Of a stretch of DNA of 64,000 nucleotides, positions 302-56,334 are shown one piece after another. Where the stretch lies: IMG/VR virus record IMGVR_UViG_3300045256_000567; one strand, written 5' to 3'. The DNA comes from a virus. The notes beneath the pieces were generated by a model, which was not told where the DNA came from, ran no database searches, and worked only from the letters and a program-made list of their open reading frames with translations. How positions within the stretch are numbered: the stretch's first letter is position 1; each line of letters starts with the position of its first letter. The position numbers were made by a program, and so were the translations under genes.

Positions 302-1533
302 AACATATGTTTGCAGAAAGCCTACGCTTTTAAGCGTAGGATGAATGCAAACAAACGCTTTGAATATGGTATAATGTTAGCAGGTAGTAATGATAAAGTC
401 TTTCAAATACCGACTGTATCCAACCAAGCCTCAGATAAAGGATTTAGAAAAAACCTTGTTTCTGTGTCGTCAACTGTACAATACTGCTTTGGAACAAAGA
501 AGGGAATTGTACAAAAACTACAAAAAGTCTATCACCTACTATGAACAAGATAAACAACTACCCAAAATAAAAACAGAGCGTCCAGAATACAAGAATGTAA
601 ATGCACAGGTTCTTCAGGATGTGCTGAAAAGGGTAGACAAAGCCTACCAAGGGTTTTTTAGGCGTATTAAAACGGGTGAAACACCTGGTTTTCCAAGGTT
701 CAAAGGTGAAAATAGGTACGATAGTTTCACCTTTCCTCAAGCAAGCTTGACAGGAATCAAGATTCAAGAAGGCAAAAACAGAGTTTTGGTTCATAGAATT
801 GGTTCTATAAAATGCAAGTTTCATAGACCGCTTAAAGGTCAAATAAAGACAGCTTCTATAAAAAGGGATGGTGATGAATGGTATGTCATTTTCACCTGTA
901 TCACAGAACCAAAGAAACTTCCTGAAAACCAAGATGCAGTTGGAATAGACCTTGGCACTAATCCAAACTTCCTAACCACCTCTAACAGTGAAATGGTTCC
1001 TGCTCCTAGGTATTTCAAGAATTCTGAAGATAGGCTTGCCAAAGCACAGAAAATAGTTTCAAAAAGAAAACCTGGTAGCAACAGAAGGAACAAGGCTAAG
1101 AAATTGGTTGCTAAAATCCACAAGAAAATAGCAAACCAAAGAAAGGATTTTCATCACAAGGTAGCAAAAGACTTGGTGAATAAATATGGAACCATAGTAC
1201 ACGAAGACCTAGATATAAAACAACTCGCCCAAACTAGAACAGCTAAAGGTGTCCTAGATGCAGGTTGGGCGCAATTCCTAGCAATACTTGCCTACAAAGC
1301 GGAAGAAGCTGGTAGTCAAGTAATAAAAGTAGATCCAAAATACACAAGCCAAGATTGTCCCGTTTGCGGTAACCGAGAAAAACATCCGCTTTGGGTACGT
1401 ACCTATACCTGCGCTAAATGCAACACAACCCTTCATCGGGATATTGCAGCAGCACAAAATATCTTGGCTAAGGCTCGGACGGAGCCTTCGCTAAATGCGA
1501 GAAGCCCAATTCTTTAGAATTGGGAGTCGTCAC
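302..1533 (+). mobile_element. IS200/IS605-family tnpB-only (IS1341-like) element, copy 1
   Basis: TTAC (298-301), 15 nt, AAAG, then LE hairpin CCTACGCTTTTAAGCGTAGG (321-340). RE is GAAG, hairpin CCCAATTCTTTAGAATTGGG (1505-1524), AGTCG, TCAC (1533). Same architecture as IS608 ends. Confidence 0.92.
390..1517 (+). CDS. tnpB: RNA-guided endonuclease TnpB (copy 1)
   Basis: N-terminal YRLYPT; RuvC motifs GIDLG, VHEDL, HRDIAAAQN; CPVC/CAKC zinc finger. Confidence 0.96.
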   Translation: MIKSFKYRLYPTKPQIKDLEKTLFLCRQLYNTALEQRRELYKNYKKSITYYEQDKQLPKIKTERPEYKNVNAQVLQDVLKRVDKAYQGFFRRIKTGETPGFPRFKGENRYDSFTFPQASLTGIKIQEGKNRVLVHRIGSIKCKFHRPLKGQIKTASIKRDGDEWYVIFTCITEPKKLPENQDAVGIDLGTNPNFLTTSNSEMVPAPRYFKNSEDRLAKAQKIVSKRKPGSNRRNKAKKLVAKIHKKIANQRKDFHHKVAKDLVNKYGTIVHEDLDIKQLAQTRTAKGVLDAGWAQFLAILAYKAEEAGSQVIKVDPKYTSQDCPVCGNREKHPLWVRTYTCAKCNTTLHRDIAAAQNILAKARTEPSLNARSPIL

Positions 1534-2378: not shown

Positions 2379-2416
2379 GTGACTACTCCCAATTCTAAAG
2401 AAGTGGGAGTCGTCAC
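2379..2416. repeat. 38-bp RE-RE palindrome P1 between convergent genes; probable bidirectional terminator
   Basis: GTGACTACTCCCAATTCTAAAGAAGTGGGAGTCGTCAC; supplies the TGA stop of 2413..3510. Confidence 0.88.
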
Positions 2417-3510
2417 AAAAACCAAAAACTTTCTATGCTATGATTAATAAGATTATATACAAATATATACCAACAAGAAGTTGCAATTGAAGCAAATTCA
2501 TATATACCATAGTTTGTATCTTTTCCTATAGAGTATGGAAAAATATTCTCCTCCAGAAAATAAGATAATTTTTTAGATTCTTCATTAAATTCAATATTTT
2601 GTTTATATATAAAACTTTTTGCATAAAATGCCATGAAATAGCCACGGAACCAAATTTCAGTATTTGTGTTTGGATATCCTAAATTACTATTTAATTTTTT
2701 ATATATTATTGGAGATAGGTGACTTTTAAAGTCCCTTTCTCTAAAATATTCTTCTAAATATTTTATATTTGAATATAAATAATTTTTGTTTACTCCAATT
2801 TTATTCAAAAATATAGAACCCATAGTGTATGTATTTATATTTCCAGAATTAGAGTTTAAAATTTCTACCAATTTTTCTCCATCCCAAAAATTATTTAATA
2901 TAGAAGATTTCAAAGAATTGGCTTTCGAAAGATATGTAGGATTTTGTGTTACTGCATACACACTTTTTAAAGAAAAGTATGTGTATATGCTATCGTCCAA
3001 TAAATAAGAATTATACACATAAGTATTATCAAAAGAATTGTTTACATATACCCCATACCCTCCTCTTACCAAACCATTTTGTTGAATTTCTGAAACTAAG
3101 TAATCTGCTACAGATTTTATAAAATCTTTATTTTCGTTAGTTTGAAGTTCGTTAATAAAATTATAACTAACAGAAAGAGCTTCTAACATCCATGCAACAG
3201 ACCAATTCCTTATATATTCGTCTGAATGAAATCCGTAACAATAATAATAAAAGTTAAATGAATTTTTTGAATTTAAAAGTTTTTTAGACGTATTAAAAAT
3301 ATTAATGATATTATTTTTATAATAATCATTTTGGGTTACACGATATTCTGACACTAAAGAGAGTAATGTTGATGCTAAATTATTTAAATTAGTTTTAACT
3401 TCCTGAATGGAGCTTGTATTTATAGGAGGCGTAGGTATTGAGGGTGGAGGGGGCGGCGGGCTTCCGCAAATACTTGAACATTGTTGATATGTAATTATGT
3501 GAAGACTCAT
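2413..3510 (-). CDS. Hypothetical protein with CSSIC-polyPro N-terminus and possible (alpha/alpha)6 glycosidase-like domain
   Basis: 365 aa. NPTYLSKANSLKSSILNNFWDG and EIWFRG segments are reminiscent of six-hairpin glycosidase-like folds (weak). Confidence 0.6.
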   Translation of the reverse strand: MSLHIITYQQCSSICGSPPPPPPSIPTPPINTSSIQEVKTNLNNLASTLLSLVSEYRVTQNDYYKNNIINIFNTSKKLLNSKNSFNFYYYCYGFHSDEYIRNWSVAWMLEALSVSYNFINELQTNENKDFIKSVADYLVSEIQQNGLVRGGYGVYVNNSFDNTYVYNSYLLDDSIYTYFSLKSVYAVTQNPTYLSKANSLKSSILNNFWDGEKLVEILNSNSGNINTYTMGSIFLNKIGVNKNYLYSNIKYLEEYFRERDFKSHLSPIIYKKLNSNLGYPNTNTEIWFRGYFMAFYAKSFIYKQNIEFNEESKKLSYFLEENIFPYSIGKDTNYGIYEFASIATSCWYIFVYNLINHSIESFWFL

Positions 3511-3748
3511 AATTTTAAAAAAATTAGGCTTCTCGTATTTAGCGAAGACTTTGTCAGCGCCTTAGTCAAAACATTTTGTGCTGCTGCAATATTCCGATGA
3601 GGGGTTGTATTGCATTTGGTGCAGGTATTGGTTGTATACAGACGGTACTTTAAAGACTTGATCATTACTAAACTATATTGTATCATATTCAGAGTGCGCG
3701 TTTTCATTAACACTACACCTAAAGGTGTAAGCTTTCTGCAAACGTGTT
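3499..3748 (-). mobile_element. Internally deleted tnpB mini-element M1 (LE, fused tnpB 5'/3' ends, degenerate RE)
   Basis: TTAT at 3752-3749, LE hairpin, MIKSLKYRLY fused to TCTKCNTTPHRNIAAAQN, RE ending GAGTCTTCAC at 3499. Confidence 0.9.
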
Positions 3749-3794
3749 ATAATTTAGAAGGGAGGATGCAACGTTAAAACGCTGCTAACAACCA

Positions 3795-6489: not shown

Positions 6490-6513
6490 TTTTTATTCCT
6501 CCAAAATTTTTAT

Positions 6514-6690
6514 AATACACGTTTGCAGAAAGCTTACACCTTTAGGTGTAGTGTTAATGAAAACGCGCACTCTGAATATGATACAATATAGTTTAGTAAT
6601 GATCAAGTCTTTCAAATACCGTCTGTATACAACCAATACCTGTGACAAAGCAGTGACGACTCCCAATTCTTTAGAATCTGGAGCCATCAC
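6514..6690 (+). mobile_element. Mini-element M2 (LE, tnpB stub, RE palindrome P2 at 6653-6690)
   Basis: TTAT at 6510-6513; LE nearly identical to M1; same CTGTATACAACCAATACCTG deletion junction; then GTGACGACTCCCAATTCTTTAGAATCTGGAGCCATCAC. Confidence 0.88.
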
Positions 6691-11738: not shown

Positions 11739-11790
11739 ACATATATAATAACATCAAATAAATGTTTTGGGAAGACCCCCCCTAATTTAC

Positions 11791-12033
11791 AGAACAGTTT
11801 GCAGAAAGCCTACACCTAAAGGTGTAGGATGAATGCAAAAATTGAAATTCTATGGTATAATAAACTTGTGCAAAAGAAGCACACCAAATCCTACAAAGCT
11901 GAAAATGCTGGTAGGTACTTGAATTATAAGATTCAAGGTAATCATCGGGAAAATAAGAAAATACCGATAATGGCTTGGACGGAGCCTTCGTTAATTACGA
12001 GAAGCCCAATTCTTTAGAATTGGGAGTCGTCAC
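11791..12033 (+). mobile_element. Non-coding mini-element M3 (LE, promoter, omegaRNA, RE)
   Basis: TTAC at 11787-11790, LE hairpin CCTACACCTAAAGGTGTAGG, RE ending TCAC at 12033. Confidence 0.9.
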
Positions 12034-12053
12034 AAAATAAAAATAAGTATGCC
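11868..12053 (+). ncRNA. Stand-alone TnpB omegaRNA 1 (scaffold ~11868-12033 plus guide AAAATAAAAATAAGTATGCC)
   Basis: TG-g-TATAAT at 11853-11861; seven successive hairpins; 3' 62 nt identical to the RE of tnpB copy 2; identical copy at 56079-56256. Confidence 0.75.
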
Positions 12054-20235: not shown

Positions 20236-20311
20236 GGGACGTTAGCTCAGAGGTGAGAGCAGTCGGCTCATAACCGATTGGTCGCAGGTTCAAATCCTGC
20301 ACGTCCCACCA
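20236..20311 (+). tRNA. tRNA with CAT anticodon, probably tRNA-Ile2 (lysidine) rather than Met
   Basis: Full cloverleaf GGGACGT/ACGTCCC, GTCGG-CTCATAA-CCGAT, TTCAAAT, encoded CCA; TTGACA-N17-TATCAT promoter upstream. Confidence 0.92.
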
Positions 20312-20333
20312 AATTTTTTTAATATTTGTTAAA

Positions 20334-20440
20334 GTGACGACTCCCAATTCTTTAGAATTGGGAGTTGTCACTTCATATACAAGAAATTTAGTTGCATTCA
20401 TCCTACGCATAAAGGCGTAGGTTTTCTGCAAATCAATGTT
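20334..20440 (-). mobile_element. Minimal 107-bp LE+RE element M4 (RE palindrome P3 at 20334-20371)
   Basis: TTAT at 20444-20441, LE hairpin CCTACGCCTTTATGCGTAGG, palindromic RE ending GTCGTCAC at 20334. Confidence 0.88.
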
Positions 20441-20454
20441 ATAATAAAAACAAG

Positions 20455-24737: not shown

Positions 24738-24814
24738 GGGGGATTAGCTCAGCGGACAAGAGCAAGCGCCTTCTAAGCGTTAGGTCGCAGGTTCGATTCC
24801 TGCATCCCCCGCCA
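24738..24814 (+). tRNA. tRNA-Arg(TCT)
   Basis: GGGGGAT/ATCCCCC acceptor stem, AGCGC-CTTCTAA-GCGTT, TTCGATT, encoded CCA. Confidence 0.93.
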
Positions 24815-28475: not shown

Positions 28476-29703
28476 GTGACGACTCCCAATTCTAAAGAAT
28501 TGGGCTTCTCGTAATTAACGAAGGCTCCGTCCAAGCCTTAGCCAAGATATTTTGTGCCGCTGCAATATCCCGATGAAGGGTTGTATTGCATTTTGCACAG
28601 GTATAGGTACGTATCCAAAGAGGATGCTTTTCTCGATTACCGCAAACAGGACAGTCTTGGCTTGTGTATTTTGGGTCTACTTTTATTACTTGCCTACCAG
28701 CTTCTTCCGCTTTGTAGGCAAGTATTGCTAGGAATTGCGCCCAACCTGCATCTAGGACACCTTTAGCTGTTCTAGTTTGGGCGAGTTGTTTTATATCTAG
28801 GTCTTCGTGTACTATGGTTCCATATTTATTCACCAAGTCTTTTGCTACCTTGTGATGAAAATCCTTTCTTTGGTTTGCTATTTTCTTGTGGATTTTAGCA
28901 ACCAGTCTTTTAGCTTTGTTCCTTCTGTTGCTACCAGGTTTTCTTTTTGAAACTATTTTCTGTGCTTTGGAGAGTGTTTTTTCATACTTCTTGAAATACC
29001 TAGGAGCAGGAACCATTTCACTGTCAGAGGTGGTTAGGAAGTTTGGGTTAGTACCAAGGTCTATTCCAACTGCATCTTGGTTTACAGGAAGTTTTTTTGG
29101 TTCTGTGATACAGGTGAAAATTATATACCATTCATCATTCTCCCTTTTTATAGAAGCTGTCTTTATTTGACCTTCAAGCGGTCTGTGAAACTTGCATTTG
29201 ATAGAACCAATCTTATGCACCAAAACTCTGTTTTTACCTTCTTGAATCTTGATTCCTGTTACGTTTGCTTGAGGAAAAGTAAAGCTGTCATATCTTCCTT
29301 CGCCTTTGAACCTTGGATATCCTGGTGTTTCACCTTTTTTGATACGCCTAAAAAACCCTTGGTAGGCTTTGTCTACCCTTTTCAATACATCCTGAAGAAC
29401 CTGTGCATTTACATTCTTGTATTCTGGACGCTCTTCCTTCAAACTAGGTAGTTGGTTAGCTTGTTCATAGTAACCAATGCTTTTCTTGTGGGTTTTGTAT
29501 AATTCCTTTCTTTTTTCCAAAGCAGTATTGTACAGTTGACGACACAGAAACAAGGTTTTCTCTAAATCCTTGATCTGAGGCTTGGTTGGATACAGACGGT
29601 ATTTGAAGGACTTGATCATTACTAAACTATATTGTATCATATTAATAGTACGCGTTTGCATTCATCCTACACCTAAAGGTGTGGGTTTTCTGCAAACTGT
29701 TCT
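28476..29703 (-). mobile_element. IS200/IS605-family tnpB-only element, copy 2
   Basis: TTAT at 29707-29704, LE hairpin, tnpB, RE ending TCAC at 28476. Confidence 0.92.
28492..29619 (-). CDS. tnpB: TnpB (copy 2)
   Basis: Same motifs as copy 1; start set to MIKSF. Confidence 0.96.
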   Translation of the reverse strand: MIKSFKYRLYPTKPQIKDLEKTLFLCRQLYNTALEKRKELYKTHKKSIGYYEQANQLPSLKEERPEYKNVNAQVLQDVLKRVDKAYQGFFRRIKKGETPGYPRFKGEGRYDSFTFPQANVTGIKIQEGKNRVLVHKIGSIKCKFHRPLEGQIKTASIKRENDEWYIIFTCITEPKKLPVNQDAVGIDLGTNPNFLTTSDSEMVPAPRYFKKYEKTLSKAQKIVSKRKPGSNRRNKAKRLVAKIHKKIANQRKDFHHKVAKDLVNKYGTIVHEDLDIKQLAQTRTAKGVLDAGWAQFLAILAYKAEEAGRQVIKVDPKYTSQDCPVCGNREKHPLWIRTYTCAKCNTTLHRDIAAAQNILAKAWTEPSLITRSPIL

Positions 29704-29732
29704 ATAATGTTAATGTTAATAGGAGCCAAAAA

Positions 29733-50751: not shown

Positions 50752-50780
50752 ATTATAGCACGTTTGCAGAAAACCTACGA
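50752..50780 (-). promoter_or_regulatory. Half LE forming a TG-c-TATAAT promoter; also the guide region of tnpB copy 3
   Basis: TTAT-AGCACGTTTGCAGAAAACCTACGA directly abutting the RE at 50781. Confidence 0.75.
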
Positions 50781-51950
50781 GTGACGACTCCCAATTCTAA
50801 AGAATTGGGCTTCTCGCAAGAAGCGAAGGCTCCGTCCGAGCCTTAGCCAAGATATTTTGTGCCGCTGCAATATCCCGATGAAGGGTTGTATTGCATTTGG
50901 CGCAGGTATAGGTACGTATCCAAAGTGGGTGTTTTTCTCTGTTACCACAAACAGGACAATCTTGGCTTGTGTATTTTGGGTCTACTTTTATTACTTGCCT
51001 ACCAGCTTCCTCCGCTTTGTAGGCAAGTATTGCTAGGAACTGTGCCCAACCTGCATCTAGGATACCTTTAGCTGTTCTAGTTTGAGCAAGTTGTTTTATA
51101 TCTAGGTCTTCGTGTACTATGGTTCCATATTTATTCACCAAGTCCTTTGCTACCTTGTGATGAAAATCCTTTCTTTGGTTTGCTATTTTTCGATGTACCT
51201 TGGCAACTAGTTTCTTAGCCTTGGTTCTTCTGTTGCTACCAGGTTTTCTTTTTGAAACTATTTGTTGTGCTTTGGCAAGCCTATCTTCAGACTTCTTGAA
51301 ATACCTAGGAGCAGGAACCATTTCACTGTCAGAGGTGGTTAGGAAGTTTGGGTTAGTACCAAGGTCTATTCCAACTGCATCTTGGTTTACAGGAAGTTTT
51401 TTTGGTTCTGTGATACAGGTGAAAATGACATACCATTCATCATTCTCCCTTTTTATAGAAGCTGTCTTTATTTGACCTTCAAGCGGTCTGTGAAACTTGC
51501 ATTTGATAGAACCAATCTTATGAACCAAAACTCTGTTTTTACCTTCTTGAATCTTGATTCCTGTTTTGCTTACTTGAGTAAAGGTGAAGCTGTCATACCT
51601 ATTTTCACCCTTGAATCTTGGGAAACCAGGTGTTTCACCTTTCTTTATACGCCTAAAAAAGCCTTGGTAGGCTTTATCTAACCTTTGTAGCACATCCTGA
51701 AGAACTTGACTATGTATATTCTTGTATTCTGGAAACTCTTCCTTTAGTTTAGGAAGTTGACTATTTTGCTCGTAACGGCTAATGGTCTTTTTGGAACTTT
51801 TGTACACGTCACGTCTTTTTTCCAAAGCAGTATTGTACAATTGACGACACAGAAACAAGGTTTTCTCTAAATCCTTGATCTGAGGCTTGGTTGGATACAG
51901 TCGGTACTTGAAAGACTTGATCATTGCTGACCTTTATTATACCATATTCA
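50781..51950 (-). mobile_element. tnpB element copy 3: intact RE, no canonical LE
   Basis: RE ends at 50781; upstream TGAATATGGTATAAT promoter as in copy 1; only an LE hairpin arm remains, at 52081-52093. Confidence 0.8.
50797..51924 (-). CDS. tnpB: TnpB (copy 3)
   Basis: All RuvC and zinc-finger motifs intact. Confidence 0.96.
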   Translation of the reverse strand: MIKSFKYRLYPTKPQIKDLEKTLFLCRQLYNTALEKRRDVYKSSKKTISRYEQNSQLPKLKEEFPEYKNIHSQVLQDVLQRLDKAYQGFFRRIKKGETPGFPRFKGENRYDSFTFTQVSKTGIKIQEGKNRVLVHKIGSIKCKFHRPLEGQIKTASIKRENDEWYVIFTCITEPKKLPVNQDAVGIDLGTNPNFLTTSDSEMVPAPRYFKKSEDRLAKAQQIVSKRKPGSNRRTKAKKLVAKVHRKIANQRKDFHHKVAKDLVNKYGTIVHEDLDIKQLAQTRTAKGILDAGWAQFLAILAYKAEEAGRQVIKVDPKYTSQDCPVCGNREKHPLWIRTYTCAKCNTTLHRDIAAAQNILAKARTEPSLLARSPIL

Positions 51951-52093
51951 GGAATGTCACACTATTCAATCGCTTGTACATTATACCAAAAATTTATTAC
52001 CATTGTATTATGTGAGGGAGTCCATGTATCCCCGCTTTGAAAAGCGGGGAATTATAGCTCCCCCACACCCCCTCAATTTTTTAAAGGTGTAGG

Positions 52094-52131
52094 GTTACAA
52101 TTCCCAGTTCTTTAGAACTGGGAATCGTCAC
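52094..52131. repeat. RE palindrome P4 with compensatory substitutions
   Basis: GTTACAATTCCCAGTTCTTTAGAACTGGGAATCGTCAC; supplies the TGA of 52128..55253. Confidence 0.85.
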
Positions 52132-55260: not shown

Positions 55261-55353
55261 ATTATAGCAAAGTTTGCAGAAAACTTACAAAATATGTTTG
55301 CATTCATCCTACGCTTAAAAGCGTAGGCTTTCTGCAAACATATTTTGTAAAAT
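55261..55353. promoter_or_regulatory. Nested LE cluster acting as a divergent promoter
   Basis: LE head (+) at 55266, full LE (-) from 55346, 18-bp inverted repeat at 55285-55302/55333-55350. Confidence 0.75.
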
Positions 55354-56067: not shown

Positions 56068-56244
56068 CGACACCGCACGTGACGACTCCCAATTCTAAAG
56101 AATTGGGCTTCTCGTAATTAACGAAGGCTCCGTCCAAGCCATTATCGGTATTTTCTTATTTTCCCGATGATTACCTTGAATCTTATAATTCAAGTACCTA
56201 CCAGCATTTTCAGCTTTGTAGGATTTGGTGTGCTTCTTTTGCAC
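56059..56244 (-). ncRNA. Stand-alone TnpB omegaRNA 2 (scaffold to 56079 plus guide GTGCGGTGTCGTCACATGTA)
   Basis: 56079-56256 is the reverse complement of 11856-12033; driven by TG-c-TATAAT. Confidence 0.75.
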
Positions 56245-56250
56245 AAGTTT

Positions 56251-56334
56251 ATTATAGCACAGTTTGCAGAAAGCCTACTCCTAAAATCACAGGCTTTCTG
56301 CAAACTTGTATTGTAAGAACATATAGTGTATACT
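56251..56334. promoter_or_regulatory. Back-to-back LE pair forming a divergent promoter
   Basis: TTAT-AGCACAGTTTGCAGAAAGCCT...AGGCTTTCTGCAAACTTGTATT-GTAA; rightward TTGTAT-N17-TATACT. Confidence 0.72.

Follow-up and report, generated by a model that had tools for sequence, protein, structure and literature searches.

TnpB is an RNA-guided nuclease of the IS200/IS605 family and the ancestor of Cas12, and its transposon-associated motif (TAM) is known to match the target site of the corresponding transposase. In the stretch of DNA analyzed here, 64,000 nucleotides (nt) of the IMG/VR virus record IMGVR_UViG_3300045256_000567 (in the following called the window), we identified three intact tnpB genes, designated c1, c2 and c3. 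These genes are recombination mosaics, and their most divergent part corresponds to the region that contacts the TAM in the structure of ISDra2 TnpB.

ISDra2 TnpB from Deinococcus radiodurans (PDB 8H1J, 8EXA, 8BF8) recognizes the TAM TTGAT: Y52 and S56 touch the T at position -1, Q80 reads the A at -2, K76 reads the G at -3, F77 and T123 contact the T at -4, and N124 reads the T at -5 (Nakagawa et al. 2023, PMC10097598). The -1 base is held by van der Waals contacts only, and the exchange S56A merely lowers the activity (PMC10097598). For SisTnpB7 with the TAM TTTAA, only one other TAM position affected cleavage more than -1 when mutated (PMC11043419). On the side of the transposase it is established for IS608 from Helicobacter pylori that the target site is selected by base pairing with the left-end guide, which pairs with the cleavage site (PMC5934647). 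A further member, ISDge10 TnpB from Deinococcus geothermalis, was compared by its TAM only; the published motif TTAT (PMC11589281) equals the flank of c2 and of several short derivatives in the window.

The genes c1 (390-1517, plus strand), c2 (28492-29619, minus strand) and c3 (50797-51924, minus strand) each encode 375 amino acids (aa) and are 90-91% identical; the spans aligned by tblastn are 390-1514 (+), 28495-29619 (-) and 50800-51924 (-). All three products contain the domains HTH_OrfB_IS605, OrfB_IS605 (RuvC) and the Cas12f1-like_TNB zinc ribbon, each far above the Pfam cut-offs. The catalytic residues D187, E272 and D351 and the zinc-finger residues C323, C326, C341 and C344 are unchanged in the three copies and align with D191, E278 and D361 and with C331, C334, C351 and C354 of ISDra2 TnpB. 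The window proteins share with ISDra2 TnpB the order WED-REC-RuvC-TNB, the D-E-D triad and the CCCC zinc finger, with an identity of 34% in the Foldseek alignment. An AlphaFold2 (AF2) model had a mean predicted local distance difference test score of 76, with values of about 90 in the REC/WED lobe. The best Foldseek matches of this model were 8h1j_A (E = 4e-24) and 8ex9_A, and for the REC/WED lobe, superposition of the model on ISDra2 (8ex9_A) gave a target-normalised TM-score of 0.85 and a root-mean-square deviation of 2.5 Å. In contrast to ISDra2 TnpB, the window genes are phage-borne, lack an adjacent tnpA, and their 375-aa products have no long C-terminal tail.

These features identify c1, c2 and c3 as tnpB-only (IS1341-type) members of the IS200/IS605 family. 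Their nearest relatives are IS605-family elements of Thermus, Meiothermus and the phages T72, TSP4 and phiLo, with 61-68% aa identity. A tnpA gene is present in the relatives L087, L088 and L025, but the TnpA of the Thermus relative L087 gave no tblastn match in the window or in three further tnpB loci described below (L022-L024). The window copies are therefore the non-autonomous, tnpB-only form, and their mobility would depend on a transposase supplied in trans.

The differences between the three proteins are clustered. Codons 36-121, which make up 23% of the length, contain 27 of the 50 variable positions (Fisher p = 2e-7), whereas residues 122-375 with the RuvC and zinc-finger domains show 93-94% identity. 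This agrees with the original prediction, which had described nearly identical RuvC and zinc-finger parts next to a variable region at 490-750, equivalent to codons 34-121 of c1. The peptides listed there for c1, c2 and c3 are also exact, namely ITYYEQDKQL, IGYYEQANQL and ISRYEQNSQL at residues 48-57, VNAQ, VNAQ and IHSQ at 70-73, and FPQASLT, FPQANVT and FTQVSKT at 115-121. The divergent block, which comprises REC helices and the start of the WED domain, is located at 495-752 (+) in c1, at 29257-29514 (-) in c2 and at 51562-51819 (-) in c3. We refer to the corresponding block types as A (c1), B (c2) and C (c3).

To relate the block to the known TAM contacts we used a HMMER alignment with ISDra2 TnpB (8bf8_A / 8h1j_A; residues 3-363, E = 2e-55), which contains within the first 130 residues only a 2-residue gap after residue 62 and a 3-residue insertion at 115-117. 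Y52, S56 and K76 of ISDra2 correspond to positions 50 (Y/Y/R in c1/c2/c3), 54 (D/A/N) and 72 (A/A/S), so that block type A is characterized by Y50, D54 and A72, type B by Y50, A54 and A72, and type C by R50, N54 and S72. The equivalents of F77, Q80, T123 and N124 are Q73, Q76, T121 and G122, all of them invariant; G122 lies one codon beyond the block of c1. The contact equivalents that vary are those touching the target-proximal base (-1) and position -3, and the four assigned to the constant TTA do not vary. In particular Q76 and T121, which as Q80 and T123 read the A at -2 and the T at -4 in ISDra2, are constant in the window copies, as is TTA. Identity with ISDra2 at the contact positions is kept for Q80 and T123 in all window copies and for Y52 in c1 and c2 only. 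The other contact residues are replaced (K76 by S or A, F77 by Q, N124 by G), as expected because the TAM of the window elements is TTAN with 4 nt instead of TTGAT. The variable residues 116-120 immediately precede T121, and their mapping is approximate because the 3-residue insertion adjoins. Apart from this part, the proposed correspondence between the variable segments and the TAM-contact regions of ISDra2 is essentially right. The block covers the REC/WED surface that reads the TAM in ISDra2.

The complete elements demonstrated that two types of left end are combined with these proteins. Element c1 (302-1533, +) consists of a type I left end (302-389), tnpB and a right-end hairpin ending ...GAGTCGTCAC at position 1533. 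Its left end comprises 19 nt ending in the guide AAAG, followed by the hairpin CCTACGCT-TTTA-AGCGTAGG, and is preceded by TTAC (298-301, +) as TAM and left cleavage site. TTAC and AAAG, the latter directly 5' of the hairpin foot, are the cleavage-site and guide sequences of IS608 (PMC5934647), and as in IS608 the right-end hairpin is followed by about 10 nt to the cleavage point. Unlike IS608, the window elements encode no TnpA, AAAA/TTAT variants occur, the spacer between TTAY and the hairpin varies from 17 to 20 nt, and the right end finishes in GTCAC. Element c2 (28476-29703, -) has a type I left end with the guide AAAA, tnpB and a right end, and is flanked by TTAT (29704-29707, -). Element c3 (50781-52080, -) has a type II left end with the sequence AAAATT GAGGGGGTGTGGGGGAGCTATAAT, a single T, the hairpin CCCCGCTT..AAGCGGGG and ATACATGGACTCCC, in addition to tnpB and a right end. 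Its flank TTAA (52081-52084, -) was assigned from an alignment with 16 further type II left ends and from the reconstruction of a nested insertion, as c3 sits in opposite orientation inside the loop of a type I left-end hairpin. The 5' half of this interrupted left end (TTAT + AGCACGTTTGCAGAAAA + CCTACGA) is found at 50753-50780 (+) and the other half at 52081-52094, from which the boundary of c3 (50781-52080, TAM 52081-52084) also follows. Because of the insertion into this hairpin loop, the presumed guide of c3, located immediately beyond its right end, is itself left-end sequence (TCGTAGGTTTTCTGCAAAC). All right ends finish in GAGTCGTCAC and hairpins are located at both ends. Left and right flanking sequences of each element are unrelated to one another, and hence a direct repeat indicating target duplication was not seen. 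The flanks TTAC of copy 1 and TTAT of copy 2 had been correctly recognized, and with TTAA at c3 the three copies do not have one common flank.

The type I left end is common to c1, c2 and the two loci L022 and L023 outside the window. It has the layout TTAY, 5-8 variable nt, GTTTGCAG, AAAG or AAAA, and the hairpin CCTACNCN-TTTA-NGNGTAGG; in the window and these two loci, 14 of 14 type I heads have TTAY located 5-8 nt ahead of GTTTGCAG. The guide AAAA was accompanied by TTAT in all six cases, whereas AAAG occurred four times with TTAC and four times with TTAT, which fits a G that pairs with C or wobbles with T. A strict rule by which AAAG and AAAA set TTAC and TTAT was rejected, as only AAAA is exclusive. 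L022 and L023 combine the c1-type block with the flank TTAT. The choice between TTAC and TTAT is therefore not tied to the protein, because type A adjoins TTAC in c1 and TTAT in these two loci.

The type II left end (about 155 nt) of c3 and of L024 is the normal left end of the Thermus and Meiothermus relatives. It consists of TTAN, 6 nt, GAGGGGG(T/C)GTGGGGGAGCTATAAT, one nucleotide, a hairpin and ATACATGGACTCCCCC. In 15 of the 17 ends that were read, this one guide nucleotide and the last TAM base are Watson-Crick partners. Nine ends combine the guide C with TTAG and four combine G with TTAC; phage T72 has A and TTAT, and both c3 and the hybrid locus L024 have T and TTAA. The exceptions are the phiLo copy L086, with TTAG and A, and the TSP4 copy L084, with TTAG and a guide that is ambiguous at the foot. 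This covariation shows that, on the side of the transposase, the left-end guide nucleotide determines the last TAM base. The target sites of the phage lineages are TTAY and TTAA, and the difference is encoded within the element. The earlier claim that the paralogues have different TAMs thus stands for c3 (type II end, TTAA) against c1 and c2 (TTAC/TTAT), with guides matching the flanks, and is not supported for c1 against c2, where the contrast is not linked to the protein.

The claim that a common RNA scaffold is kept agrees with the 3' 231 nt up to the right end: this putative omega-RNA region, which would encode the scaffold, is 93% identical between the copies. Rfam contains no family matching the right end or this region. 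Upstream of tnpB, extended -10 boxes (TGGTATAAT) are present, as a single box in c1 and c2 and as a tandem pair in c3 (370-389 and 51925-52000 in the window), and the homology between type I and type II left ends begins exactly at the proximal box. In L025, another type II left-end remnant, diverged and flanked by TTAT (TTATAAAAGTGAGGGGGTGTGGGGAGC), is located at 940-975, upstream of the tnpA-tnpB element and in addition to its own left end.

The comparison with the family revealed that the phage alleles deviate at positions which are otherwise conserved. Among 119 relatives, positions 50/54/72 are occupied by F/K/S in 77 and by L/K/S in 20, and H71-S72-Q73 is almost invariant. H71/S72 and P116/A118 show 98-100% conservation in these relatives and are altered in the phage alleles, with N71-A72 in A and B and T116 and V118 in C. 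K54 was found only with TTAG (8/8 K54 members with a readable left end; like the guide/TAM pairs, this is a count without full phylogenetic correction) and is absent from all phage copies. Every TAM ending in a base other than G is paired with a residue other than lysine at position 54, which is E, N, H, T or D in TTAC members, N, D or A in TTAT members and N in TTAA members; three members without Lys54 (N, Q, D) still have TTAG. Positions 50 and 54 together are F/L/Y and K in the TTAG relatives and Y and D, Y and A, or R and N in the phage copies. Loss of Lys54 goes with departure from G, and residue 54 alone is insufficient to specify the base. The candidate rule that this residue alone encodes the last TAM base was accordingly rejected, with only the assignment of K54 to G remaining valid.

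The nearest relatives share with the window copies the type II left end (in c3), the 3' terminus GAGTCGTCAC and the pairing of the guide with the last TAM base; their type II elements are the 61-68% identical ones mentioned above. They differ in that most of them have TTAG and the residues F/L/Y50-K54-H71-S72, whereas the window copies are AT-rich and lack K54, and two of the three alleles have N71-A72 together with a type I left end. In a phylogenetic tree the window copies form one clade of their own on a long branch. A separate clade contains T72 (TTAT), L089 (TTAC) and phiLo copy 2 (TTAG), with A/N, S/H and F/D at positions 50/54. The three closely related copies L083 (T72), L089/L090 and L100 (phiLo copy 2) represent a mostly phage-borne second series, in which TTAT, TTAC and TTAG occur with the guides A, G and C.

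The mosaic structure became evident from a protein cluster at 90% identity, whose six members combine the blocks in differing combinations. Close copies were found only by exact-protein look-ups; scans of viral and metagenome contigs for close copies gave nothing above 65% identity, and a scan of genome contigs with overly specific patterns yielded a single distant locus. Two further full copies, P0123 (read from L022) and P0124 (read from L023), are located outside the window on the same 153-kb contig; P0124 in L023 is the whole 375-aa frame, although it was called short. The sixth copy, P0125 (L024), is on a short contig of 2356 nt from another sample. L022 and L023 both carry the c1-type block at 36-94; L022 is c3-type at 118-120 and c2-type at 214-217, and L023 is c3-type at 220-245 with a c2-type C-terminus. 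L024 is a hybrid with a type II left end, a c3-like sequence through codon 165 and then a c2-like sequence with the downstream flank of c2. Its 97-nt upstream flank gave no match in the window, and the locus represents either a recombinant locus of a related phage or an assembly join. In the four-gamete test 50% of the informative site pairs were incompatible, and the pairwise homoplasy index was 0.215 compared to 0.499 +/- 0.012 in 2000 permutations (p<0.0005). L022 and L023 have, moreover, about 29 nt in common upstream of the TTAT flank (L022:1385-1420 and L023:1286-1321). This shared stretch covers the start and the first four codons (MANN) of two otherwise unrelated, divergently transcribed genes, and a conversion tract or a duplication seems to have passed the element end here.

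Substitution rates were calculated with the method of Nei and Gojobori for c1, c2 and c3. The ratio of nonsynonymous to synonymous substitution rates (dN/dS) is 0.15-0.21 in codons 36-121 and 0.13-0.20 elsewhere (codons 122-375), whereas the synonymous rate dS reaches 0.67-1.24 in the block compared to 0.17-0.22 outside, which is 3-6 times higher. Silent and replacement changes are both more frequent in the block. Since dS is raised there and the remainder has been homogenised by recombination, the block looks older and not faster evolving. The phage alleles are 73-83% identical to each other in codons 36-121 and at most 70% identical to any outgroup. The block has thus diverged inside the phage lineage, because the alleles are nearer to each other than to any outside relative. 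On the basis of these values an import of block C from a Thermus element was rejected. Most simply, the data are read as gene conversion that holds the bulk of the gene uniform, with the block persisting as three old alleles, A in c1 and the two copies outside the window, B in c2 and C in c3.

Taken together, we consider the following explanation somewhat probable. The copies exchange sequence by homologous recombination or gene conversion, and because of this exchange codons 1-35, the two thirds of the gene with RuvC and zinc finger, and the right end including the omega-RNA region are near-uniform. Codons 36-121 have stayed separate as the three old alleles, of which A and B are combined with the IS608-like left end (AAAG or AAAA, TTAC or TTAT) and C with the left end of the Thermus relatives (guide nucleotide T, flank TTAA). 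Owing to these different left ends, the target site and hence the TAM of each lineage is TTAN with a lineage-specific last base. Positions 50/54, the equivalents of Y52/S56, would then have changed to accept the new base. The TnpB alleles may accordingly differ in their reading of the last TAM base or have relaxed it, and the 50/54 variants may be specific for the new base or merely permissive at -1. A more far-reaching possibility, which we regard as tentative, is that two or three TnpB lineages whose TAMs are orthogonal (TTAY versus TTAA) are maintained in the phage and have, by ongoing recombination, one interchangeable RuvC/omega-RNA chassis in common. Selection would in that case hold the REC "TAM cassette" and the guide together in each lineage, with 50/54 as a swappable determinant of the -1 base (Lys54 for G).

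Several results weigh against our main explanation. At a dN/dS of about 0.2 the block shows no excess of amino-acid change. In comparisons with c3, the TAM-proximal segments 48-57, 69-73 and 115-121 show a proportion of nonsynonymous differences (pN) of 0.27-0.29; for the remainder of the block pN is 0.10-0.12, while the synonymous proportions (pS) are similar. This excess (2.3-2.7 times) is not significant (p = 0.12-0.17). Variation among the contact equivalents is restricted to three of seven (hypergeometric p = 0.053). D54 is found with the last bases C, T and G, N54 with C, T, A and G, and the type A protein beside TTAC as well as TTAT. The association of block type with left-end type is based on only three lineages, and all close copies come from metagenome assemblies. 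The low dN/dS, the several last bases seen with D54 and N54 and the two flanks of the type A protein would suit a neutral mosaic with a permissive TAM, in which the TnpBs need only TTA (or TTAN), the last base matters only to the transposase and the left-end guide, and the block is a tolerant surface that has not yet been converted. The high dS of the block, the pervasive recombination and the van der Waals contacts of the -1 base in ISDra2 with the lowered activity of S56A (PMC10097598) speak for it as well, and positions variable between the paralogues are somewhat more variable in the whole family (entropy 0.79 versus 0.60, p = 0.03). Such a mosaic does not explain that K54 is strictly tied to TTAG (8/8) and absent from other TAMs, nor that residues 71, 72, 116 and 118, adjoining the TAM contacts, are changed despite their near-complete conservation in the relatives. 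The block furthermore lies between homogenised sequences, yet it is linked to the left-end type in all seven copies, and the -1 effect in SisTnpB7 (PMC11043419) also opposes permissiveness; we therefore regard this explanation as possible, though doubtful.

The original prediction had gone further in proposing that TAM specificity is under diversification. In its strict form, positive selection would drive each of the three paralogues towards a TAM of its own, with TTAC for c1 as opposed to TTAT for c2. This is compatible with the clustering of variable residues in the TAM-reading region and with the guides, as the AAAA of c2 pairs only with TTAT and c1 has AAAG and TTAC. It also finds some support in codons 115-121, the only stretch in which replacements exceed silent changes (4-5 nonsynonymous versus 0-0.7 synonymous differences in the c3 comparisons), but seven codons are too few to test. 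The dN/dS analysis gave no indication of diversifying selection, the value for the whole block (0.15-0.21) not being above that of the rest of the gene (0.13-0.20). With the type A block, identical to c1 at residues 36-94, flanked by TTAT in L022 and L023, and with AAAG left ends beside TTAC and TTAT alike, this strict version is improbable. Still less credible is an origin of the mosaic in the metagenome assembly, as an artefact of jumps from one 1.2-kb repeat to another. A metagenome contig with at least five copies sharing long identical stretches would be prone to it, and the hybrid L024 joins on a 2.4-kb contig a c3-like 5' half to a c2-like 3' half with the downstream flank of c2. However, P0121 (c3), P0123 and P0124 each occur in identical form on two contigs, with the 68.9-kb contig holding P0123 and P0124 coming from JGI sample 3300045107. 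Every shared block must exist in at least one real copy, and the copies are distinguished by individual flanks, each with a guide/TAM pair that matches.

In addition to the full elements the window contains six short derivatives, m1 to m6. The internal-deletion derivative m1 (3498-3753, -) consists of a left end, the first ~15 and last ~40 codons and a degenerate right end, with TTAT and AAAG. The short derivative m2 (6510-6690, +) comprises a left end, the first codons and the right-end palindrome (TTAT, AAAG), and m4 (20325-20446, -) a left end and the right-end palindrome (TTAT, AAAA), 17 nt after the tRNA gene at 20236-20308. The non-coding derivative m3 (11787-12035, +; ~250 bp) has, besides a left end and TGGTATAAT, the 3'-terminal ~65 nt of tnpB together with the right end (TTAC, AAAG). 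The m3-like non-coding m6 (56079-56316, -) has a palindromic double left-end head (TTAC/AAAG and TTAT/AAAG). Two back-to-back left-end heads, TTAC/AAAG on the minus and TTAT/AAAA on the plus strand, form m5 (55274-55353). Stand-alone omega-RNA genes could be represented by the ~250-bp cassettes, which retain the TGGTATAAT box, these ~65 nt of tnpB and the right end. An open reading frame of 365 aa (2413-3510, -) starts within the degenerate right end of m1 (3498-3632) and is followed by a well-kept right-end palindrome, GTGACGACTCCCACTTC-TTTA-GAATTGGGAGTAGTCAC (2379-2418). Left end, reading frame and right end might together be an element carrying a passenger gene.

The window is part of a 153-kb metagenome contig according to the protein index and belongs, judged from its gene content, to a phiYS40-like Thermus phage. 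The DNA of its portal gene shares 74% identity with the portals of the Thermus phages phiYS40 and TMA, and a family A DNA polymerase, a DnaG-type primase, a ribonucleotide reductase and a PrkA kinase are also encoded. The G+C content is 24-35% across the 64 kb, and besides the tRNA gene next to m4 a second one is located at 24738-24811. The phage genome contains at least five full tnpB copies plus many short derivatives.

What these elements add to the known match between TAM and transposase target site is a compact natural series, in which close relatives, including paralogues within one phage genome, differ in the last TAM base. Each member of the series combines a compensating left-end guide nucleotide with changes at the two residues that touch this base in the solved structure. 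If the proteins do not discriminate the last base, the series would show that TnpB tolerates drift at -1. If the lineages have orthogonal TAMs, the swappable determinant at 50/54 could serve to re-aim TnpB editors. If it is true that the proteins discriminate the last base, the series would point to a simple rule by which the TAM of small TnpB editors could be altered, such as Lys54 for G, and would show a nuclease and a transposon end co-evolving while recombination keeps the rest of the gene uniform.

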